Source: a virus
Length of the DNA: 64,000 nt
Virus record (IMG/VR): IMGVR_UViG_3300048011_000525
Location: 1-64,000 of that record
Reading direction: 5' to 3' (one strand)
Shown: piece after piece, positions 1 through 10,118 of the stretch
Numbering within the stretch: the first letter of the stretch is position 1
How the letters are laid out: every line of letters begins with the position of its first letter
The notes under the pieces: model-generated
Databases searched by the model: none
What the model was told of the DNA's origin: nothing
Seen by the model: the letters and a program-made list of their open reading frames with translations, nothing else
Translations under genes and position numbers: made by a program

Positions 1-480
1 ATACACTATATAGAGCAAGAGTATGCGTATAGGCCCCGCTATAGTGATCAACAGCTAAGGCCCCGCTGTAAGGATAGTAAACAGCACACACCTAAGCATT
101 CTAATAAACGTAGATGAACTATATACTAGCATGATCACACTAGAAACTAGCACTACACGGATAAGCACATACTACCAAGGCAGTATGAGAGTTCCTTGCT
201 ATACTGTATACGAGAATGATCGTATAGTGATCCAAACCACACACAAGCCCACGGCATACACTATATATGAGGGGTTGAAATCTAAGGTGAAAAGTATTTG
301 AACTATGCCTCTCGCGACCTCAGTCAATCTTTTTTGAATACTGTATAAAATTACACTAAACCGTCTTAAACTGTAATAATATTACACGGCGAACCTGGCT
401 TTACGGCCGATTCCGCCATGTTGCTAGACACCGTAAACGCATGGTAAAGCCACAGTTCGGCCGCCACCAGCGGCCTCTAG

Positions 481-712
481 TCACTCGCTATATAGTTCAC
501 ATGACTCTCTTATCACTACACTATATAGAGAGCTGCCCCTATCACTACTATATACTCTATCACTGAGCTTTACTACACTATATAGAGTGTCACTAAGGTT
601 GTCACTATATAGTCTATCACTACCATCACTATATAGTGTCACTATTGGCTTACTGTCACTGTCACTATATACTCTGTCACTAAGGTTGTCACTGTTGAAT
701 TGGTCACTACAC
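481..712. repeat. Low-complexity iterated block (CACTATATA and GTCACT units; TGTCACTAAGGTTGTCACT twice)
   Basis: CACTATATA at 519, 576, 603, 627, 663 (also 4 and 259); 19-nt direct repeat at 588-606 and 675-693. Confidence 0.8.
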
Positions 713-770
713 TCATTTTTTGGATTTGTCAAATTTTTCTCGTCCAAAATCCAAGTGTTTTTTGGTGGGA

Positions 771-927
771 TAACCTATTGAAATCATTGAGAAAAATTCT
801 CCTTTAAAATCAAGAGGTTAGGTGGGGCCCCGGCTGTAAATCCTAAGTCATTGATCTTATTGGAGTTTTTGGTGTGAACCTGGGGAGGAACTGTTCTTTT
901 GCTCATTCGAACTGTAACCTCTTGATA
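771..927. promoter_or_regulatory. Cluster of IHF-like sites (WATCAANNNNTTR)
   Basis: Perfect matches at 808-820 (+) and 915-927 (-); one-mismatch copies at 844-856 (-) and 771-783 (-). Confidence 0.55.
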
Positions 928-1006
928 GTATTGAGGTTTCTAATTCTTTCCTCTCTAGTGCAAAAGAACGGTTGACAAGTGGGGAGAAAGACTGTATAAT
1001 AGCAGC

Positions 1007-1100
1007 CGAGGTTGAGGCATATAGAACCTTCGCCCATCGGGAGTGTTTGTCTTCTACTTGGGGAATTCAGTAGCCCTAACCCTCTTTGCCCTTATTGTTC
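1007..1100 (+). ncRNA. Candidate non-coding transcript complementary to early-gene leaders
   Basis: Promoter at 972-1000 has no ORF before 1252; the transcript contains GCCCTAACCCTCTTTGCCCTTATTGTT. Confidence 0.35.
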
Positions 1101-1104
1101 TTAT

Positions 1105-1133
1105 AGTATACCTTCACTCTAGTCAGAAGTCAA
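1105..1133 (-). promoter_or_regulatory. Leftward sigma70 promoter with no credible downstream ORF
   Basis: Reverse complement reads AAAGAGG-TTGACT-17nt-TATACT, the same cassette as the rightward early promoters. Confidence 0.75.
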
Positions 1134-1251
1134 CCTCTTTTTAGCCAAAATCTTATTTTATTTTTGTGGGTATTTTGGAGAGAAAAAGGTTGACAACAGC
1201 CGGAAATGAGGTTATACTGTATACAGTTAAACAATAAAGAGAGGGCTTAAT

Positions 1252-1491
1252 ATGTACGGAATGTTCACTAAAGAAGGAAATGAATTGGTCGCAAGGATCG
1301 CAGCAGCCGGTGAGAAACTCGCAGCACAAGATGGCGCAGCCAGTGCCTGGGGTTTTTGCTTGCGAAAGTTGGAGACTCTCAGCTATGGCGAAGGCTTTGG
1401 TGAGGCCACTGACACTGATGTGAGAGAGCGAGTCTACGGTGATGTGGTTGCAGCCGCAGATGACACTTGCGATTTTTATCTAGCTCATTGA
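1252..1491 (+). CDS. Hypothetical early protein
   Basis: 79 aa ORF with own promoter and GAGGGC leader. Confidence 0.8.
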   Translation: MYGMFTKEGNELVARIAAAGEKLAAQDGAASAWGFCLRKLETLSYGEGFGEATDTDVRERVYGDVVAAADDTCDFYLAH

Positions 1492-1570
1492 GCAGAAAAA
1501 GGTTGACAGCAGCCGGATTAGATGGTATACTGTATATAACAGTTAGGGCAATATGTGGAGGGCACAGCCG

Positions 1571-1912
1571 ATGAATTTTGTAATTTCAACTCAAGTATTA
1601 GAGAACTATGGCGCTCATTGTGAGGACGGCAAGTTCAGCAGCCAGAACCATTATTGGAAGATGAAGGGCGGCATGGACTATCTGGTCAAGGACCTGGACC
1701 GTGTGCAAGATGCGGTGGCGTTCGTAGCAGCCGCGTTTTCGGACAACAGCCTGGGGTATAAAGAGTTCCCCATCGAGTGGCAGACCGAAGAGGAATGGAT
1801 TGCTAAACTGCCGGACGATGCAGACTATCGTGACTTCCTCAAAGAGCAAGTTTGGGTGGTTAGCCCTAAGACGGGGCGAAAGCACACCAAAGGTTATCCG
1901 GAGGAGTTTTAA
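1571..1912 (+). CDS. Hypothetical early protein
   Basis: Start moved to the ATG after GGAGGGCA; own promoter. Confidence 0.8.
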   Translation: MNFVISTQVLENYGAHCEDGKFSSQNHYWKMKGGMDYLVKDLDRVQDAVAFVAAAFSDNSLGYKEFPIEWQTEEEWIAKLPDDADYRDFLKEQVWVVSPKTGRKHTKGYPEEF

Positions 1913-1913
1913 T

Positions 1914-2090
1914 ATGAATACCTGTTCACACTGTAAGTCAGAGGTTGAGAACAACGCTCTTCGTTGTCCTTACTGCCTAGAGAATCCATATGATAATTTC
2001 GCATTTGAAACTGGTGGAACCTTTTCAACCATACTGGAATGGATACTCGGAACAGCCGTGGTATTGGTTATCCTGGCTTGGATATTTTGA
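1914..2090 (+). CDS. Small zinc-ribbon membrane protein
   Basis: CxxC-x10-CxxC plus hydrophobic C-terminus; GGAGGAG RBS before ATG 1914. Confidence 0.75.
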   Translation: MNTCSHCKSEVENNALRCPYCLENPYDNFAFETGGTFSTILEWILGTAVVLVILAWIF

Positions 2091-2163
2091 GCAAAAAGAG
2101 GTTGACATCTCCTTAAAAGATGCTATTATATAAGAGTAAGTTAAACAAAGCGAGGGCAATAAG

Positions 2164-2373
2164 ATGGCAAATTCAAGAGACGTAGCACTAGAGTTGGTAG
2201 ACAACGGTTTGGTAACAGCCGAGGCGATGCTGACTATGTGCCTAAAGTATATGTCAACAGACGATGTTGAGGATATGCTTGACTGTAATGAGTTGAGCGA
2301 ACGGTTTATGGAAGACGATGACGGGCAGCCGACTTGGGAACAAGAGTGGGCAGACTTTGGGGAGGAATACTAA
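2164..2373 (+). CDS. Small acidic early protein
   Basis: 69 aa; promoter and GAGGGCA leader. Confidence 0.8.
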   Translation: MANSRDVALELVDNGLVTAEAMLTMCLKYMSTDDVEDMLDCNELSERFMEDDDGQPTWEQEWADFGEEY

Positions 2374-2374
2374 G

Positions 2375-2965
2375 ATGCCAAATTGGTGCAATAACAATAT
2401 CACGATTCAGGGATCAACTGAAACTATCAAAACACTTTGGGAAGAGGCTACAGCCGAAGATGGTGGACTGCTATCAGCAATGGTTCCTATGCCCAAGGCT
2501 CTAGAAGGAACTACATCACCTACACCACAAGAAGGTGCCAGCAACTACGAAGGTGAACAGCCGATAGTAGATGGCTACGACAATTGGTATGATTGGTCGG
2601 TGGCCCGATGGGGAACCAAGTGGGATGTATCCACAGAAGGACTAGAGTTTACGGACAACGGAGACGGCACAGCCTCGATCAGTGGTTGGTTCGACAGTGC
2701 ATGGGCTCCACCACTTACTGCATACGAAACATTCTGCGAAAGCATGGACGGTGTCTACATTGAAGCGAGTTATCACGAAGGTGGTATGGACTTCGGTGGC
2801 TTCTGGGATAGCGAGACCGGTGAAGAGCATATGGACGGCATCCAAGAGACTTGGGAACAGTATAAAGACAACCTCGACGATGCTCCTAGTCTGTTCAAAC
2901 GCATAGACGAAGAATACGGTCTATCCGATCAATACGCTGAATGGGAAGAAATGGAAATGGAATAA
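2375..2965 (+). CDS. DUF1281/YubB (Api92)-like protein
   Basis: MPNWCNN start, WGTKW and FDSAWAPP motifs; GGAGG RBS. Confidence 0.75.
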   Translation: MPNWCNNNITIQGSTETIKTLWEEATAEDGGLLSAMVPMPKALEGTTSPTPQEGASNYEGEQPIVDGYDNWYDWSVARWGTKWDVSTEGLEFTDNGDGTASISGWFDSAWAPPLTAYETFCESMDGVYIEASYHEGGMDFGGFWDSETGEEHMDGIQETWEQYKDNLDDAPSLFKRIDEEYGLSDQYAEWEEMEME

Positions 2966-3032
2966 AAGAGGTTGACAAGGATGTCTTCCTATGCTATAGT
3001 ATAAACACAATAAGAGATTAGGAGGGCATCCA

Positions 3033-3314
3033 ATGTCAACAGATTTAAGAAACGTTCCAGACTGTGTAGCACAGAACGAATTGACTCAGACACGCTTTTG
3101 GGGTGGCAAGGATCGATTGACTTGCATACAGATCACTCAACGCAAACCCAAGTATGATCCAGACAACGGCGGAGCAATGTTTAACCATATACAGTTGACC
3201 AAGCATCAAGCTCGTATGTTGGCAACAGAATTGATGTTGTTTGCAGAGGGCCGCGAAGTAGAAGAGTTGGCTGAGTTGGATGATGCAACATTTGGTGAAG
3301 AGGAGCCAGCGTAA
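3033..3314 (+). CDS. Hypothetical early protein
   Basis: Promoter and GAGGGCA leader. Confidence 0.8.
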   Translation: MSTDLRNVPDCVAQNELTQTRFWGGKDRLTCIQITQRKPKYDPDNGGAMFNHIQLTKHQARMLATELMLFAEGREVEELAELDDATFGEEEPA

Positions 3315-3514
3315 TGAGACGATCCTATCGTATATACGGAATCAAGGACGGTGGCAAGGAAGAGTTTGTCACTTCAGTATCCGCAGCAGCCGACGGCAAA
3401 GCTGCACACCAGGCAATGAAGCTGCAAGGCTACTTCGATCGCATCGTTTGTCGTGATGTGCTAGGTGGCTTGCGTTTTGAATATAATTTAAAAACTGGTA
3501 GAAAATTGGCATAA
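3314..3514 (+). CDS. Hypothetical early protein
   Basis: TAATG coupling to the upstream gene; GAGGAG RBS. Confidence 0.75.
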   Translation: MRRSYRIYGIKDGGKEEFVTSVSAAADGKAAHQAMKLQGYFDRIVCRDVLGGLRFEYNLKTGRKLA

Positions 3515-3586
3515 AAGAGGTTGACAACTGAGCACTTCGGTGCTATTATATAAGAGTAAGTTAACAAAGCTAGAAGGGCAAACAAA

Positions 3587-4051
3587 ATGGCAACACGTTC
3601 AAACATCGCATACAAAACAGCAGAAGGCAAAATCCGCAGCGTCTACAGCCACTGGGATGGCTATGTAGCAAACAATGGTCGCATCCTAGAGGAGAGCTAC
3701 CAGGACCAAGCAAAGATTGAAGCATTGGTTGCACTAGGTAGCATCAGCAGCCTGGGAGCAGAACTAGGCGAGCAGCAGGACTTCAACGATCGCAGCACAC
3801 AACAAGACGATTGGACACTAGCATATCATCGTGACCGTGGTGAAGATTTGGTTGTTAGCGAATACGACGACATTCCAAGTTGGATCAACGACATGGAGGA
3901 ATACGCTTACCTGTGGAACGGCAAGGAATGGCTTGTAAACGATCACGGTGCTAAGGACGCAAACGGCTTTCCTGTGTTCGACTTGCTGTCAACTGTAGTG
4001 CCAATCGAACTAGCACGTATGGAGCAGCGCATCGCAGCAGCCGCAAATTAA
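3587..4051 (+). CDS. Conserved-type phage hypothetical protein
   Basis: MxTRS...YxHWDGY motif; own promoter. Confidence 0.8.
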   Translation: MATRSNIAYKTAEGKIRSVYSHWDGYVANNGRILEESYQDQAKIEALVALGSISSLGAELGEQQDFNDRSTQQDDWTLAYHRDRGEDLVVSEYDDIPSWINDMEEYAYLWNGKEWLVNDHGAKDANGFPVFDLLSTVVPIELARMEQRIAAAAN

Positions 4052-4135
4052 TTTGGTATTTTGGCAAATTAGGGGTTGACAGCAGCCCCTAATGAGGCTA
4101 TACTATATATAACAGTTAGGAAAGAGGGCAAACAA

Positions 4136-4324
4136 ATGAAACAGACAATTGGTTTTATCTTAATCGTAGTAGGAATGATGGTAGCAGCCGGTAGTGCTGG
4201 GGACTGTGACGGACAGTGTATGGAATACGCTAACAGCCTGAGCGAGATGCTTATGATCGCAGCAGCCGGAATTTTTGCTATGGTAGTAGGTGCGTTGGCA
4301 GTTTTTTCTGCACAAAATGATTAA
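4136..4324 (+). CDS. Small two-TM membrane protein
   Basis: ATG after GAGGGCA; two hydrophobic segments flanking CDGQC. Confidence 0.75.
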   Translation: MKQTIGFILIVVGMMVAAGSAGDCDGQCMEYANSLSEMLMIAAAGIFAMVVGALAVFSAQND

Positions 4325-4395
4325 TTAGGGGTTGACAAACTCCGCAGTAGATGGTATACTGTATATAACAGTTAAACAATTGAGAGGCAAATAAC

Positions 4396-4713
4396 ATGAC
4401 ACAGAAAACTTTTGAAGTAGCAGGTACATCAACACTAAATGGCGTGACTAAGGTAAGGTTCGCAAATGACTATGTAGGTCGTTTCAAGATCCTTGTTAAG
4501 AACGGACACGAGAACATTGAGTTGATGGAACTAGGTGAGAAGATGACCAAGGCAGACATCTGCAAGGTATTGATTGCTCATCCAAACTTCCAAGGTGAAG
4601 ATCAGCAGAGTGCGATCGCAGAATTTGTTGTACGAAATGTGAAGGCGCAGCCGGAGCAGACAGAAACAACAAAGGTGGAAGCAGCCGAAGACGTCGAAGC
4701 AGAATTGGCGTAG
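4396..4713 (+). CDS. Hypothetical early protein
   Basis: 105 aa; own promoter; GAGGCA leader. Confidence 0.8.
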   Translation: MTQKTFEVAGTSTLNGVTKVRFANDYVGRFKILVKNGHENIELMELGEKMTKADICKVLIAHPNFQGEDQQSAIAEFVVRNVKAQPEQTETTKVEAAEDVEAELA

Positions 4714-4816
4714 GCACTTCCACAACCAGGGCGTCCTTGTGTAGCAGCCGGGACACTCCAATAGAGAGCGGTGGGGCTCATTGGACACATTATTGCAGCA
4801 GCCAGAGGATCGGGCA

Positions 4817-4945
4817 TTGGAACTAAATGAAATCATCGCAGTCGTAGGGATTGCATTCACATCATTCATGGCGGGGTATCTACTTTCAGAGATGCATTCA
4901 TTCCGCAAGTATATCAAAGAAAATTGTTTGAAGGAGACTTCATAA
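4817..4945 (+). CDS. Small single-TM protein (42 aa, not in ORF track)
   Basis: TTG start after AGAGGA; MELNEIIAVVGIAFTSFMAGYLL... Confidence 0.45.
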   Translation: MELNEIIAVVGIAFTSFMAGYLLSEMHSFRKYIKENCLKETS

Positions 4946-4952
4946 AGACTTA

Positions 4953-5029
4953 GGGCCTTTAGCTCAATTGGTTAGAGCACCGGACTCATAATCCGTAGGT
5001 TCCGAGTTCGAGTCTCGGAGGGCCCACCA
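4953..5029 (+). tRNA. tRNA with CAT anticodon, most likely tRNA-Ile2 (lysidine type)
   Basis: GGGCCTT/AGGGCCC acceptor stem, CTCATAA loop, TTCGAGT T-loop, encoded CCA; not initiator-like. Confidence 0.9.
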
Positions 5030-5034
5030 AGTAA

Positions 5035-5111
5035 CTGCCCTTAGCTCAGCAGGATAGAGCAAGAGATTTCTAATCTCTAGGTCGGGGGTTCGAATCCCTC
5101 AGGGCAGGCCA
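5035..5111 (+). tRNA. tRNA-Arg(TCT)
   Basis: CTGCCCT/AGGGCAG acceptor stem, AGAGA-TTTCTAA-TCTCT arm, CCA. Confidence 0.95.
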
Positions 5112-5115
5112 ATTA

Positions 5116-5199
5116 GCCTCCGTGGTGGAATAGGTAGACACAAGGGACTTAAAATCCCTCGCTTATGGCGTCCCGGTTCGAGTCCGGGCGGAGGCACCA
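5116..5199 (+). tRNA. tRNA-Leu(TAA)
   Basis: GCCTCCG/CGGAGGC acceptor stem, AGGGA-CTTAAAA-TCCCT arm, long variable arm, CCA. Confidence 0.95.
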
Positions 5200-5200
5200 A

Positions 5201-5300
5201 GTTTAGGGAGTTGAGCAGCCGAACGAGCCGCCCTCACTCAAAGGTACCGCAGCGTATGCCCTCACGCTAAGGAACGCTCCTCCCTAAGCCCTTTGGGCAG
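5201..5300 (+). ncRNA. Candidate structured sRNA with GCCCUC (anti-leader) loops
   Basis: Closing stem 5201-5210/5280-5289; inner hairpins TTGAG/CTCAA and AGCGT-ATGCCCTC-ACGCT. Confidence 0.6.
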
Positions 5301-5334
5301 CAGCCGAGGTTCCAGAACCATCAGGCATCAGTTT

Positions 5335-5364
5335 ATTATAACACAGAGCAGCCGGGGTTGTCAA
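5335..5364 (-). promoter_or_regulatory. Leftward sigma70 promoter, antisense to the sRNA/tRNA cluster
   Basis: Reverse complement TTTAGG-TTGACA-18nt-TATAAT. Confidence 0.7.
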
Positions 5365-5473
5365 CCTAAAAATAACCAAAATAAAATTAAAAAATGGCAA
5401 ATAAAAGGTTGACAGTAACAGCAAACGAGGCTATACTGTATACAGTTAAACAATAAAGCAAAGAGGGCAAACT

Positions 5474-5812
5474 ATGCTTACAATTACTAAAACTGGTTTT
5501 GAACAGAACGACGACTACACTAGCACTTTTTACGGTGTAGAAGGCGCGGTGACGCTTGCTGGCGACAGCTTATGGGGTGACACTGCGGGGCGAGTTGTTA
5601 ACGTTGAAGGCATTACTGTAACAGAAGAACAGTACGGTGAAGAGGCTGACGACAAGTACATGCACGTGACAGTGACACACGACAGCACGTGGGACATTTA
5701 CACTGACACTGCGTTTGCTGTAGCAATTAGCGAAGCGTTGGGCATGGACATTGACTTTACGGAGCAAGGCATGCAAGACGACGGACACGCGAGCATGGAA
5801 GTGTACAGTTAA
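5474..5812 (+). CDS. Hypothetical acidic early protein
   Basis: Promoter and GAGGGCA leader. Confidence 0.8.
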   Translation: MLTITKTGFEQNDDYTSTFYGVEGAVTLAGDSLWGDTAGRVVNVEGITVTEEQYGEEADDKYMHVTVTHDSTWDIYTDTAFAVAISEALGMDIDFTEQGMQDDGHASMEVYS

Positions 5813-5900
5813 AAAAGTGGCAAAAAAGAGGTTGACAACGGCCTCTTTGTTTGCTATACTGTATATAACAGTTAGGGCAATAAGTAGAAGGAACTACGCA

Positions 5901-6095
5901 ATGATCAAAGTATTCAACAGCGCATACCGTGAGTCGATCGAGCAGCCGAAGATGATTCCACTGGATGAAGTCAACATCGTAACACAGAACATCCACAACG
6001 GCGCTCCTTACATCTTGTTCGAGCACAAAGACTATCCGCTGGGCGCACTGAGCGCAACCTTCGACGGTGAGTATTGGGCTTGTGACCTTGATTGA
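5901..6095 (+). CDS. Hypothetical early protein
   Basis: ATG at 5901 after AAGGA; promoter at 5832. Confidence 0.7.
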   Translation: MIKVFNSAYRESIEQPKMIPLDEVNIVTQNIHNGAPYILFEHKDYPLGALSATFDGEYWACDLD

Positions 6096-6187
6096 TGATC
6101 CGTGTGATGATTGGTACCCATTAGGGGTTGACAAACCAAAGAAGTGACTGTATACTGTAAGTATAACAATTAGGAAAGAGGGCAAAC

Positions 6188-6457
6188 ATGGAAAAATCAA
6201 TTTACGAAGTAGGTGAACAGCACAAACAACTAGCAGCCGTTGGTAGACGCATGATGGACATGAGCGAGTATGCCAATTGCAAGGGCATGAAGGATGAAGA
6301 CTTCAAATTGCTCAACGACATGAGTCACGTAGGCAACCTGCTTACCAAATTGGGCAATGCGTTTGGTCCTAAGCTGGACAAAGACTTTACAGCCGAGGAT
6401 ATGGATTTAATTGCTCGTTTTATGAAAAAAGAGATTGACATTCCGCAGATGCGGTAG
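6188..6457 (+). CDS. Hypothetical early protein
   Basis: Promoter and GAGGGCA leader. Confidence 0.8.
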   Translation: MEKSIYEVGEQHKQLAAVGRRMMDMSEYANCKGMKDEDFKLLNDMSHVGNLLTKLGNAFGPKLDKDFTAEDMDLIARFMKKEIDIPQMR

Positions 6458-6495
6458 TATACTGTATATAACAATTAGGGCAAAGGGCAAAACAA

Positions 6496-6633
6496 ATGAT
6501 TAAAACACTAGGTTGGTTAACAGTAATTGGAATAGGTCTTTACACAGGGATCCTACAGGCCATGTTGATATTTGCTGGTGCTGCGGTTATTTGGGTTGGT
6601 ACTTTGCTCGCTAGTTTGGGAGGCGCGATATGA
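6496..6633 (+). CDS. Small hydrophobic membrane protein (45 aa, not in ORF track)
   Basis: Promoter at 6435, AGGGCA twice in the leader, MIKTLGWLTVIGIGL...; stop overlaps the next ATG. Confidence 0.7.
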   Translation: MIKTLGWLTVIGIGLYTGILQAMLIFAGAAVIWVGTLLASLGGAI

Positions 6634-6863
6634 AATGGGTTTTGATAGCAAGCGTTCTTAACTGGCAACCAGTATATGACGATCAGAAGACCTGTCAACT
6701 AGCAGCCGAAGAGCTCAAGAAGGTATATTACCAAGAAGTCGCTGCGTGTATTCCAAAGCCGACTAACACAGCCGGTGAGAATGAGAATGTGGACCGCATG
6801 TTCGAACAGTTCATGAATATGGTAAAAGAACTACAAAAAGAAGTTGACAACGGCAACAACTGA
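6630..6863 (+). CDS. Hypothetical protein
   Basis: ATGA overlap; GGAGG RBS. Confidence 0.75.
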   Translation: MKWVLIASVLNWQPVYDDQKTCQLAAEELKKVYYQEVAACIPKPTNTAGENENVDRMFEQFMNMVKELQKEVDNGNN

Positions 6864-6907
6864 ACGTATACTACATATATAAATTAACTTAACGCTGTGA
6901 GGGCACA

Positions 6908-7912
6908 ATGACAAACATTACAATCAAAGAAGGCACATACAAAATCCGTGGTAAAGACGTAGACCTATCAGGTATGACTTTTCCACTAGTAGAAGAATTC
7001 AAAGTAGGAGCACGAGGTGGCTACGTAACAGTAGACGGTTCAGCAGTTGCTGGCTTTCCACAGCGTAACATCAAGATCATGTGCGCAAGTGCAGATGACT
7101 ATGCCCAAACTGATGCTGCAATTAATACAGCAGCAGTAGAGGAGAGTGACGAAGAAGTTATCGAACGTATCCGTGAACGCTTTGACATGTTGAAGGACAT
7201 GACCAAAGCAGTCAAGAAAGGTGCTGTGCGAGCTATGATCGTTTCAGGACCTCCAGGTGTTGGTAAGTCGCATGGTGTAGAAGAAGTACTAGAGCGTTAC
7301 GACACACTAGAACATCTAGGTGGTTCCTCTAAGTATACAATTGTTAAAGGTGCAATGAGCCCAATCGGACTCTACTGTAAGCTGTTCAACTACGCAGACA
7401 AAGACAACGTTATCGTGTTCGATGACTGTGATGCGATCTTCGAAGAGCCACTTGCACTTAATATTTTAAAAGCTGCTCTAGACAGCAAGAAGAAACGTAC
7501 TATTCACTGGAACACAGACAGTTTCAAGTTGCGTAATGAAGGTGTGCCGGATTCATTCGAGTTCAAAGGTTCAGCGATCTTTATTACCAACCTTGACTTC
7601 CATGACGTAAAGAGCAAGAAGATACGCTCGCACTTGGAAGCACTAGAGTCACGTTGTCACTATATGGATTTAACTATCCACTCTGAGCGCGACAAGATGC
7701 TCAGAATTGCACAAGTCATCAAGGACGGAATGCTAGATAGTTATAAGGTGTCCGATGAAGTCAAAGAAGAAATCATTGATTTCGTGGACATTAATAAGAA
7801 GCGACTAAGAGAACTGTCATTGCGTACAGTACTTAAGGTAGCCGACTTAGCAGTTGCATTTCCAGATCGTTGGGAAGCAATGGCTGAGAACACTGTTATG
7901 AAACATTCTTAA
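6908..7912 (+). CDS. AAA+ family ATPase
   Basis: Walker A GPPGVGKS, Walker B VIVFDD, sensor ITN, ALESR arginine finger. Confidence 0.85.
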   Translation: MTNITIKEGTYKIRGKDVDLSGMTFPLVEEFKVGARGGYVTVDGSAVAGFPQRNIKIMCASADDYAQTDAAINTAAVEESDEEVIERIRERFDMLKDMTKAVKKGAVRAMIVSGPPGVGKSHGVEEVLERYDTLEHLGGSSKYTIVKGAMSPIGLYCKLFNYADKDNVIVFDDCDAIFEEPLALNILKAALDSKKKRTIHWNTDSFKLRNEGVPDSFEFKGSAIFITNLDFHDVKSKKIRSHLEALESRCHYMDLTIHSERDKMLRIAQVIKDGMLDSYKVSDEVKEEIIDFVDINKKRLRELSLRTVLKVADLAVAFPDRWEAMAENTVMKHS

Positions 7913-8034
7913 TGCCCTCAAGAATCATAACAGTTCAAGTGTTAAGCAGGCACCCCTCATAGCCCTCACGCTCTGCTAACACATGCGCCCGGAGTAGGAC
8001 ATGCCCTCGTCCAATACACTCCGGGCTTTTTTTT
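7892..8034 (+). ncRNA. Candidate 3-prime-UTR sRNA: three hairpins with GCCCUC loops ending in an intrinsic terminator
   Basis: Stems 7892-7934, 7939-7982, 7987-8026 followed by T8; GCCCTC at 7914, 7962, 8003. Confidence 0.65.
7987..8034 (+). terminator. Rho-independent terminator
   Basis: GCCCGGAGT...ACTCCGGGC followed by T8. Confidence 0.85.
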
Positions 8035-8120
8035 GATCTTTTTTTGATTTAGGGGTTGACACAGCCGCCATTTGATTATAAGCTGTATATAACAGTTAAC
8101 AAAGCAAGAGGGCAAAAGCA

Positions 8121-8513
8121 ATGACAACTGTAATTAAAGAGAACTTCCGCAAGTGTTCAGTAGAGGGATGCAACAAGCTGGGCCAGCACATGGGCAAGTA
8201 TCGCAAAGACGGATCACCTGTACGCAGAGCCAAGTGTGCCAAACATCATTCAATTGACTACGGCATGAAAGGTTGGGACTACAAGCAACACCGCAAAGAC
8301 TACTGTGAGAACCGTGACGGACGCTTGGGCTTCACCTGCACATCAACTATTGTAGATCCAGAGTGGCAACTAGACGCAGATCACATCAACGGCAACCCAA
8401 GCGACAATCGTCCTGAGAACATACAGACACTGTGCAAGTGCTGTCACCCAATCAAAACTAAAATGGAAGGTGATTACCTAACAGCCGGTCGCAAAGCATA
8501 CGGGGTAAAATAA
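8121..8513 (+). CDS. HNH endonuclease-like zinc protein
   Basis: DHINGNPSDNRPENIQTLCKCCH. Confidence 0.8.
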   Translation: MTTVIKENFRKCSVEGCNKLGQHMGKYRKDGSPVRRAKCAKHHSIDYGMKGWDYKQHRKDYCENRDGRLGFTCTSTIVDPEWQLDADHINGNPSDNRPENIQTLCKCCHPIKTKMEGDYLTAGRKAYGVK

Positions 8514-8599
8514 TTACGCAATTTGGTAAAAAAGAGGTTGACAACCGGCCTCTTTTTTTATATACTGTATATAACAGTTAAGCAAATGAGGGCAAACAA

Positions 8600-8971
8600 A
8601 TGCTAGTAACTAAACACACCGAGGAAAGCACACACAAGTTTTTTGCAATAGCAGACATTGAAGCTCGTGCTCGTGCAGCGTACAATGCAAACAAGCAGCT
8701 ATTTGAAAGTGCTGCACACCAGCAGCGTGTAGAACTTGTAGACACTATACTACGCAACATGCTCGCGGGCTACACTACAGCATATCAAACTGCTCGCGCT
8801 GCTACTAAACGCAAAGCAGCACACACAGAAGTCAAGTACGACCGCGTAATACAATACACAAGCAACAAGCACAAGCAGCTACGTGCAGCAGCCGTTGAGC
8901 AACTAGCAGCACTTGGACTTGACTTAGTATACAAACCCAAAACAAACAGCTATAGCGTACACGTACTATAG
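8600..8971 (+). CDS. Hypothetical basic early protein
   Basis: Promoter and GAGGGCA leader. Confidence 0.8.
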   Translation: MLVTKHTEESTHKFFAIADIEARARAAYNANKQLFESAAHQQRVELVDTILRNMLAGYTTAYQTARAATKRKAAHTEVKYDRVIQYTSNKHKQLRAAAVEQLAALGLDLVYKPKTNSYSVHVL

Positions 8972-9071
8972 CAGCCGCGGCCTGTGGATAACTTTTTGGT
9001 AAAAAAGAGGTTGACAAACACACACTCAGATCATATACTGTATGTATAAGTTAAAGCAAAGAGGGCACAAT

Positions 9072-9332
9072 ATGAAACGCAACATTAGAGCAGCATACAC
9101 AAAACTAAAAGCACTTGGTGCTCCCGTGTATGAAGGTGGTTGGAATGGTGAAGACACATTCCGAATCTCAGGAGAGGACAACGGCGACACCCTTTGGGCA
9201 GACTACTATGAAGAGTTTGTGCCCAGCACATGGGAGTTTGGTGTTAATCCTATTATCACTAAGGTACTGGACAAGCATGGCTTGTTTGCAGAATGGTGCA
9301 ATGCTGGTGTGCTTAATGTATATGAGAATTGA
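9072..9332 (+). CDS. Hypothetical early protein
   Basis: ATG at 9072 after GAGGGCA. Confidence 0.8.
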   Translation: MKRNIRAAYTKLKALGAPVYEGGWNGEDTFRISGEDNGDTLWADYYEEFVPSTWEFGVNPIITKVLDKHGLFAEWCNAGVLNVYEN

Positions 9333-9403
9333 GCAAATAAAGGTTGACACACAGCACACAGATGCTATACTGTATATATAAATTAACGTAGAGGGCTAAA
9401 CAA

Positions 9404-9799
9404 ATGAACAACGAAACACTTACTCCAAACGCACTAGCAGAACGTTACACTGTAGAAGACCTACAGGCAATGCTCAACACTGCTGAGCAAGCGGCACGAA
9501 CTGCACAACATGACTTCCTAGAGCAGTGGAACACTAGCACAGGTGGTAACCAATATGGTGAGCCAATGTACTGTGGCTTTGCTTGGGTTAACATACACGG
9601 TGTTAAAGGCAATACTAAGATTGGTAGACGCTTGAAGTTGGCAGGTGTACAGCAGAGCTGGGACAAGAGCTTCCAAGTATGGAACCCAGGTTCACACGGT
9701 GGACAGAGCATGGATGTTAAAGAAGCAGGTGCTAGAGCATATGCAGATGTATTAACAGCATACGGCTTTAGAGCTTACCCAGGTAGCAGAGCAGACTAA
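9404..9799 (+). CDS. Conserved-type phage hypothetical protein
   Basis: CGFAWV and QSMDVKEAGARAYA motifs; promoter and GAGGGC leader. Confidence 0.8.
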   Translation: MNNETLTPNALAERYTVEDLQAMLNTAEQAARTAQHDFLEQWNTSTGGNQYGEPMYCGFAWVNIHGVKGNTKIGRRLKLAGVQQSWDKSFQVWNPGSHGGQSMDVKEAGARAYADVLTAYGFRAYPGSRAD

Positions 9800-9832
9800 T
9801 ACAGCAGGCTAGGCTGATGGGAGGCAAAAGAT

Positions 9833-9946
9833 ATGGATTTAATTAAAGTGTTGGCTTTTGTAGGGATTGGTTTGGCTATCGGCCAGATATATGTGCATTT
9901 TGCACTAAGGGAATTCTGGAAAGACCATAATGGTGACGACAAATAA
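9833..9946 (+). CDS. Small single-TM protein (37 aa, not in ORF track)
   Basis: GGGAGG RBS; MDLIKVLAFVGIGLAIGQIYV... Confidence 0.6.
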   Translation: MDLIKVLAFVGIGLAIGQIYVHFALREFWKDHNGDDK

Positions 9947-9967
9947 GAAGAACTGTGTGTGGGAAAA

Positions 9968-9996
9968 GATCCTTGCGTGATGCAGGGATTTTTTTT
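9968..9996 (+). terminator. Intrinsic terminator closing the early module
   Basis: ATCCTTGC-GTGAT-GCAGGGAT followed by a T run. Confidence 0.75.
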
Positions 9997-10118
9997 GAAT
10001 TTTTTTTATTTTCGAGACCGGGGGGTCGGGGCTTATAAACACTAGTAAAATCAACAACTTACAAGTCCTTAATGACCGTTTTTTAAAACCATGGTCTAGA
10101 AATCACCACCTCACTTCT

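Follow-up and report, generated by a model that had tools for sequence, protein, structure and literature searches.

In silico analysis of a 64,000-nucleotide stretch of viral DNA (IMG/VR record IMGVR_UViG_3300048011_000525, positions 1 to 64,000; hereafter the window) revealed an array of three adjacent hairpins, located on the + strand directly behind an early AAA ATPase gene (7892-8034), each of which presents the sequence GCCCUC in its loop. The ribosome-binding sites of promoter-proximal early genes, including that of the ATPase gene itself, carry a tag, GAGGGC(A), whose core is the exact reverse complement of this loop sequence. We propose that the array is an anti-Shine-Dalgarno RNA, embedded in the 3' untranslated region (3'-UTR) and terminator of the ATPase transcript, which would pair with the leaders of early messages, its own included, and damp early translation. 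We assign this reading a probability of roughly 55%.

Anatomy, strand and conservation of the hairpin array

The letters and coordinates given in a preliminary description of this locus proved correct in a base-by-base check, and its three + strand hairpins, each with GCCCUC in the loop, were reproduced by folding region 7885-8040 with RNAfold. The predicted structure has a free energy of -48.2 kcal/mol (z = -5.2; 0 of 200 shuffled sequences folded as well), and all three GCCCUC motifs and one CCCCUC motif are unpaired in it.

Hairpin 1 (7892-7934) extends over the stop codon of the ATPase gene, the 3' end of which forms its 5' arm. The outer stem pairs ACTGTTATGA (7892-7901) with TCATAACAGT (7925-7934), and the inner stem, composed of TTCTT (7906-7910) and AAGAA (7920-7924), closes the loop AAUGCCCUC (7911-7919; AATGCCCTC in DNA), which puts the TAA stop codon (7910-7912) at the junction of stem and loop, at the top of the hairpin. 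An equivalent hairpin over the stop codon is present in most relatives. A micro-open reading frame starting from the TAATG overlap (7912) was considered and rejected, since its ATG is not conserved in relatives. Hairpin 2 (7939-7982) has a stem of GTGTTAAGCAG (7939-7949) and CTGCTAACAC (7973-7982) with one bulged A, and a loop of 23 nucleotides (nt; 7950-7972) containing CCCCUC (7953-7958) and GCCCUCACGCU (7962-7972), the latter beginning with GCCCTC (7962-7967 in DNA); hairpins of the GCCCUCACGCU type recur across relatives. In hairpin 3 (7987-8026), GCCCGGAGT (7987-7995) pairs with ACTCCGGGC (8018-8026) around an inner GGAC/GUCC stem that presents AUGCCCUC (ATGCCCTC in DNA; 8001-8008). Its stem of 9 base pairs (bp; GCCCGGAGU/ACUCCGGGC) is followed by a U8 tract (8027-8034), which together constitute an intrinsic (Rho-independent) terminator.

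The polarity of this terminator had led to the proposal that the + strand is the RNA, and comparison with relatives bears this out: 46 of 57 loci have a U-rich tract behind the last hairpin, compared with 4 of 57 in which the A-rich tract required by a - strand terminator precedes the first, which fixes the strand. In addition, the + strand gives the more stable fold in 37 of 55 loci (p = 0.009). The ATPase transcript starts from a sigma-70-type early promoter (TTGACA-17-TATACT, 6844-6872, 11 of 12 matches in a consensus scan). As the same scan listed no + strand promoter-like site between this promoter and position 8034, the ATPase transcript ends with the array. The stop codon (7910-7912) and terminator (7987-8034), lying on the same strand, are placed as in small RNAs (sRNAs) derived from a 3'-UTR.

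Assembled contigs of RNA libraries from two studies show a depth peak over the last ~200 nt of the gene and the hairpins. In a marine metatranscriptome (X18), a 145-nt unitig covering 7838-7982 has a depth of 321 vs. 7-91 for unitigs of the coding part, depth being one figure per contig; in a river metatranscriptome (X16), bin 7707-7877 reaches 947 vs. ~30 further upstream, although contig depth is a weak measure. These values are a weak hint that fits the accumulation of a stable 3' fragment. No X18 unitigs extend beyond the terminator; the missing cover beyond 8049 (beyond 7877 in X15 and X16) is uninformative, because relatives diverge there.

For the analysis of conservation, an IMG/VR search with the ATPase yielded 80 loci, of which 57 non-redundant regions, spanning 62-91% ATPase identity, were folded singly after duplicate removal. 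Almost all loci of at least 62% identity contain two to five GCCCTC copies within 360 nt behind the ATPase stop codon, and this small region holds 196 of the 259 + strand copies found in 481 kb of loci. Whole-contig scans of relatives (262-358 kb) likewise placed + strand GCCCTC clusters solely behind the ATPase gene, in the middle of the tagged early module. In the folded regions, 161 of 163 GCCCUC motifs are enclosed by a hairpin loop, with a mean unpaired probability of 0.85 for the motif vs. 0.34 for the remaining bases. Under a stricter rule (loop of at most 14 nt, stem of at least 3 bp, core unpaired), 119 of 159 motifs (75%) lie in a small hairpin loop, a share that falls to 4% if only the flanks around the motif are shuffled. 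The loops belong to few types (UGCCCU closed by G-C, CCGCCCUCA and AUGCCCUC), and the stems, which reach 10-16 bp in some relatives, comprise 107 distinct 5' arms. Since the loops are invariant while the stems drift, selection acts on the loops rather than on the stems, as the preliminary description had suspected from the window alone. It had also named the loss of loops at homologous loci as an outcome that would speak against it; the loops are retained, with two to five hairpins in the 57 relatives. In one relative (L029, 2190-2900), a homing endonuclease gene of the GIY-YIG type, encoded on the opposite strand, has been inserted where the ATPase gene ends; the terminal ~30 nt of the ATPase gene are duplicated, and the hairpin array stands intact behind the duplicated end.

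GCCCTC is rare on the + strand of the window, with only five copies, three in the array and two at 5230 and 5258; the - strand has 14, giving 19 on both strands vs. 8.9 expected. The two remaining + strand copies belong to a second candidate RNA (5200-5300), located directly behind a tRNA-Leu gene, with loops CCGCCCUCA (GCCCUC at 5230-5235) and AUGCCCUC (5258-5263). This element may supply the same loops from another site, through release by tRNA processing. The case for it is weaker than for the ATPase-linked array, because it folds no better than shuffled sequences (z = -1.3) and was not found in whole-contig scans of ten relatives, where + strand GCCCTC clusters occurred behind the ATPase gene only; the exact 3' half of the tRNA-Leu had no match in relatives. 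Pairs at 173.6 and 176.9 kb of relative G003 are ordinary - strand ribosome-binding sites. The adjoining phage tRNA genes (Met-CAT, Arg-TCT and Leu-TAA; 4953-5199) form part of the early module, and RNA-library contigs of relatives lead from position 5200 back into 4952, a pattern expected if some strains had tandem repeats of the tRNA cluster.

Complementarity between the loops and the early-leader tag

The leader of the ATPase gene was confirmed to be GTGAGGGCA (6897-6905), as described earlier, and contains GAGGGCA at 6899-6905, 2 nt before the ATG. A tag of the GAGGG/AGGGC type is present in the ATPase leaders of 47 of 50 relatives, and the extra GU of GUGAGGGCA is not conserved; in three relatives the ATPase gene has no tag and the loops are kept. 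In all, 12 genes of the window have GAGGGC(A) at a distance of 3-8 nt upstream of the ATG, and each of these is the first gene behind a sigma-70 promoter. Apart from the ATPase gene, the heptamer GAGGGCA is found at 1558-1564 (with an AGGGCA copy 7 nt upstream), 2152-2158, 3022-3028, 4124-4130, 5463-5469, 6178-6184, 8588-8594 and 9061-9067, as well as at 8108-8114, before the gene just downstream of the array, and the hexamer GAGGGC at 1241-1246 and 9391-9396; all are candidate targets of the loops. Only the first cistron behind each promoter is tagged: GGAGG or AGGAG takes its place in internal early cistrons, and the ~55 remaining genes of the window, including middle or late ones, have AGGAG, GGAGG or weak sites. 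The canonical 3' end of 16S rRNA pairs with only the GAGG of the tag, and the GCA extension therefore needs another explanation.

The complementarity was recovered independently from both partners. Among 411 promoter-proximal leaders of relatives, gathered without reference to the motif and counted over their last 20 nt, the commonest 6-mers are GAGGGC (245) and AGGGCA (227); among 258 hairpin loops from the 3' regions of ATPase genes, they are GCCCTC (145), CCCTCA (89) and TGCCCT (81). The top leader 6-mer is thus the exact reverse complement of the top loop 6-mer, and the same holds for AGGGCA and TGCCCT. The match continues into a seventh position, at which the base following GAGGGC in leaders (A 182, U 47, G 9, C 7) and the base preceding GCCCUC in loops (U 84, A 54, C 25, G 0) share their rank order as complements. 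The predicted gain from co-folding with the array of the window averages -6.1 kcal/mol for 13 early initiation regions vs. -2.1 kcal/mol for 48 later ones (p = 8e-7). The tag is carried by ~80% of all promoter-proximal early leaders, and 23 leaders contain two AGGGC copies. The likely target set is therefore the early gene class and not the ATPase gene alone. Three relatives (L058, L059 and L069) have a second leader word, CGCAAGGGGCAUUGCAC, with the ATG directly after it, on several early genes including that of the ATPase; judged from its sequence, it could pair with UGCCCU via a G-U pair.

At the level of clades, tag and array are jointly present or absent. The clade with the array has 0.96 tags per kb and an array in 53 of 56 loci, whereas tag density is 0.05-0.11 per kb in two more distant ATPase clades, where 0 of 51 loci have an intergenic array. 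No arrays accompany the more distant ATPase homologues found by way of L066 and L224, and in Pseudomonas phage PA5oct the next gene begins 44 nt after the ATPase homologue, with no array between them.

Individual lineages complicate this picture. In L224/L251, L227 and L036, most other leaders have GGAGAG or AGGAGCA, the ATPase gene keeps GAGGGCA or AGGGCA, and the loops persist; L224/L251, represented by one short contig, also has two CUCCC-type loops beside its GGAGAG leaders. L025/L029 (with a GAGGAGCA leader) and L066/L215 have retained the loops with no tag on the ATPase gene. The early leaders of L066/L215 are longer (L215: 481, 2156, 6053 and 6407) and contain a GAGCGAACAGCUC hairpin followed by one or two CACUCC words upstream of a AGGAGAUC ribosome-binding site; the CACUCC words could be built-in cis-acting anti-Shine-Dalgarno elements. 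Candidates for a changed tag with matching loops were discarded. The AAGGAGCA clade has the next open reading frame immediately behind the ATPase gene and no repeated loop motif was seen nearby, and clusters of TGCTCCT in five contigs are Ala/Pro-rich coding sequence. The twin-loop pattern TTCGCTCCT occurred in 83 stretches, and none of the 80 fetched as loci had an ATPase homologue. For arrays in other contexts, IMG/VR was scanned with the pattern GCCCTC-N8-38-GCCCTCACGCT, which gave at least 80 loci; 7 of the 80 matches listed are linked to the ATPase gene, and the others were set aside, being either matches with two copies, most of them from G+C-rich contigs, or tandem repeats of 12 nt. The long tandem arrays of a 12-nt unit, (G/T)(C/G)CC(N)CACGCTG, in L097 (3712-3937), L105 (1215-1464), L116, L148 and L110 look like a coding repeat in unrelated viral contigs that matches the pattern by chance.

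Proposed early-gene feedback and competing explanations

The preferred reading, an anti-Shine-Dalgarno RNA directed at early leaders, predicts the following course. Early promoters would fire, and the ATPase transcript would end in a compact, exonuclease-resistant hairpin array (~7892-8034), two steps that follow from the sequence. By analogy with the bacterial regulatory RNAs CcsR, RsaE and RNAIII, the array, cleaved off or not, would outlive the early messages. The (U)GCCCUC loops would then pair in the cell with the GAGGGC(A) Shine-Dalgarno sequences of early leaders and exclude the 30S subunit. Early protein synthesis would fall as a result of such pairing, producing delayed negative feedback or early shut-off. 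The RNA would act both on its own mRNA and in trans. Feedback on the ATPase mRNA, which the preliminary description had raised, is plausible given its tagged leader, and the data are best fitted by a regulon that includes the ATPase gene and is wider than it.

Several points weigh against this reading. The paired core is just 6-7 nt long, and the gains upon co-folding are modest. With ~5-6 loops per genome facing mRNAs from ~14 strong promoters, the RNA must outlive those mRNAs. The joint presence or absence of tag and array represents one or two evolutionary events, and the uniformity of the tag could partly result from recombination between promoter-leader cassettes. A lineage in which tag and loop have changed together was sought among the relatives and none was found; L036 (mostly GAGGAGCA leaders) and L066/L215 (mostly AGGAGA) keep GCCCUC loops. 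The preliminary description had proposed a search for stem covariation with invariant loops at homologous loci: invariant loops on variable stems were found, and the alignment yielded no covariation score. MAFFT and RNAalifold applied to 17 three-hairpin loci predicted only four pairs, with no usable consensus, and the stems are too variable in alignment for a formal covariation statistic. Finally, RNA-contig depths provide no rigorous ranking of the parts of the gene and may pool several strains.

One competing explanation confines regulation to the ATPase gene: the loops would contact the GAGGGCA of their own mRNA (5'-3') or of its other copies, and the tag elsewhere would be nothing but a preferred ribosome-binding site. 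The permanent attachment of the array to this gene, the overlap of hairpin 1 with its stop codon and the high frequency of tagged ATPase leaders agree with it, and the position of the ATPase gene among the few that keep the tag in L224/L251, L227 and L036, where the loops persist despite the change in other leaders, favours a self-regulatory core. On the other hand, L025/L029 and L066/L215 keep the loops with an untagged ATPase gene, the tag is shared by ~80% of the other early leaders, and two to five loops, together with a second GCCCUC element behind the tRNA genes, would be redundant and unexplained; we consider it unlikely that self-regulation is the whole function. A similarly low probability is given to the view that the loops are recognized by a protein, be it an RNA-binding protein of phage or host or the adjacent ATPase, and that the array serves as a platform for processing, stabilization or titration, with the complementarity being incidental. 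Identical short loops on variable stems are typical of protein-binding RNAs too, the fixed linkage of array and ATPase gene would suit a protein-RNA pair, and the CcsR RNA is bound by the product of its upstream gene (PMC8034643). This view leaves unexplained why the independently derived top 6-mers are reverse complements, why a second pair of 6-mers is as well, and why the seventh base follows; moreover, no RNA-binding domain was found in the ATPase (Pfam AAA only, and a PHROG without known function).

The two remaining alternatives are poorly compatible with the invariant loops and the terminator polarity. A purely structural 3' end, needed for termination, as a block to 3' exonucleases or as a set of RNase III sites like those between T7 early genes, with loops that have no partner, would account for hairpin 3, a textbook intrinsic terminator, and for the long stems of relatives; termination and protection require stems and not fixed loops, and it is the stems that drift, so this explanation is improbable. 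Still less credit, close to none, is due to a functional - strand RNA with GAGGGC in its loops, e.g., a decoy for a tag-binding factor. The hairpins form on the - strand too, and a weak - strand promoter-like site lies at 8102-8075 (10 of 12 matches), in a region that varies from relative to relative; a - strand terminator is missing, and both the distribution of U- and A-rich tracts and the better folding of the + strand speak for the opposite orientation.

Genomic setting and comparison with known systems

The window constitutes the first 64 kb of a 115.6-kb viral contig with an estimated completeness of 33%. Its source is an uncultured marine giant phage. The tail sheath protein and ATPase most resemble their counterparts in the giant phages PA5oct, Atu_ph07 and Phosso, with identities of only 42-47%, and the stretch is present in public seawater, estuary and river metagenomes. 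The early module occupies bases 1-10,000 of the + strand and contains ~14 near-consensus sigma-70 promoters (TTGACA-17-TATACT, identified by consensus scan), each with a short leader and a small gene behind it. The ATPase gene (6908-7912) encodes a protein of 334 amino acids, a homologue of T4 NrdC.10, as judged from Pfam matches to AAA_16/AAA below the curated cut-offs, a match to PHROG 1250 (E 1e-85), and tblastn matches that carry the nrdC.10 annotation. Directly 3' of the array lies an HNH endonuclease gene (8121-8513; Pfam HNH_3, just under the cut-off), the tag of which is that at 8108-8114. The gene at this position varies between relatives, and the ATPase gene with its array thus forms a conserved island in a variable early region. 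The sequence (T)ACTGTATA(TA)ACAGTTA comes immediately after the -10 box in many early leaders, among them those at 1218-1235, 1531-1552, 4104-4122 and 8566-8585. It contains a short inverted repeat, ACTGT...ACAGT, which would give the transcript a small 5'-terminal hairpin or act as an operator; identical ACTGT/ACAGT ends close hairpin 1 of the array.

A search of Rfam, covering the whole window at gathering thresholds and region 4900-8200 at E <= 10, returned only the three tRNAs and tRNA-derived noise, and a literature search found no paper describing this array/tag system. The nearest structural parallel is provided by the cuckoo/CcsR RNAs (RSs0680a-d, alpha-r14, NfeR), sRNAs of Alphaproteobacteria (PMC4615179; PMC8034643), the stems of which are so variable, through compensatory changes, that covariance models perform poorly (PMC4615179). 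They consist of two to four adjacent hairpins with variable stems, each loop bearing the same C-rich anti-Shine-Dalgarno motif, and the array likewise has three hairpins in the window and two to five in relatives, closed by 107 different arms. However, the loop motif of cuckoo/CcsR is CCUCCUCCC, which is absent from 7892-8034, instead of (U)GCCCUC; their carrier is an alphaproteobacterial chromosome and not the contig of a lytic giant phage, and their upstream gene encodes a DUF1127 protein instead of an AAA ATPase. Whereas they act on stress-response mRNAs, the presumed targets of the array are the early genes of the phage itself, with their private extended tag. Given the differences in loop motif and carrier and the lack of an Rfam match, the array is not a member of this group.

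The C-rich loop motifs of RsaE and RNAIII block ribosome binding (PMC2790875). The likeness of the array to RsaE/RoxS and RNAIII of Staphylococcus and Bacillus lies in the pairing of unpaired C-rich motifs, located in several loops, with Shine-Dalgarno sequences, which blocks the initiation complex. In RNAIII, these motifs include the terminator hairpin. The loops of the array are comparable in being largely unpaired (probability 0.85) and exactly complementary to the leader tag. The staphylococcal and bacillar RNAs differ in being products of stand-alone host genes that use a UCCC motif and longer, target-specific pairings; the array offers a fixed word of 6-7 nt to one gene class. A phage precedent is the c4 antisense RNA of phages P1 and P7 (RF01695), whose exposed loops pair over a ribosome-binding site in the same transcript. 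It resembles the array in being a phage-encoded RNA with exposed loops aimed at the ribosome-binding site of a phage transcript. However, c4 controls the icd-ant operon in the immunity of temperate phages and its two loops differ from each other; neither a match to RF01695 nor sequence similarity to c4 was found in a search of the window.

Accounts of temporal control in large lytic phages usually invoke promoters, sigma factors and proteins such as RegA and RegB. In phage T4, RegB, which cuts GGAG in early Shine-Dalgarno sites, and RegA shut off early translation. The proposed outcome here is alike, early mRNAs being silenced at their ribosome-binding regions, with a protein as the effector in T4 and an RNA proposed in its place. 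In Escherichia coli, 3'ETS-leuZ is a regulatory RNA derived from the 3' trailer of a tRNA operon and acts as a sponge for sRNAs; it shares the tRNA-trailer position with the candidate element at 5200-5300 but is not an anti-Shine-Dalgarno RNA.

The locus suggests an RNA route to temporal control, in which a class-specific extension of the ribosome-binding site is read by a multi-loop RNA from the same gene class. If this is true, it would represent a simple mechanism of early-gene shut-off in an abundant group of uncultured aquatic phages, would mean that anti-Shine-Dalgarno hairpin arrays arose independently in phages, and would supply a compact orthogonal tag/anti-tag pair for the control of translation. 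A more speculative and rather unlikely extension is that the tag is a private translational code of a marine and freshwater giant phage family, with one stable RNA silencing all GAGGGCA early messages simultaneously, as the RNA equivalent of RegB/RegA in T4. As such an RNA would persist in the infected cell, it would also silence those of later-arriving relatives that share the tag, resulting in superinfection exclusion or immunity, and the ATPase might be its partner, like CcaF1 for CcsR. Judged from its sequence features, the array is best described as a putative phage-borne anti-Shine-Dalgarno hairpin array coupled to a class-specific extension of the ribosome-binding site, distinct from RsaE, RNAIII and c4.

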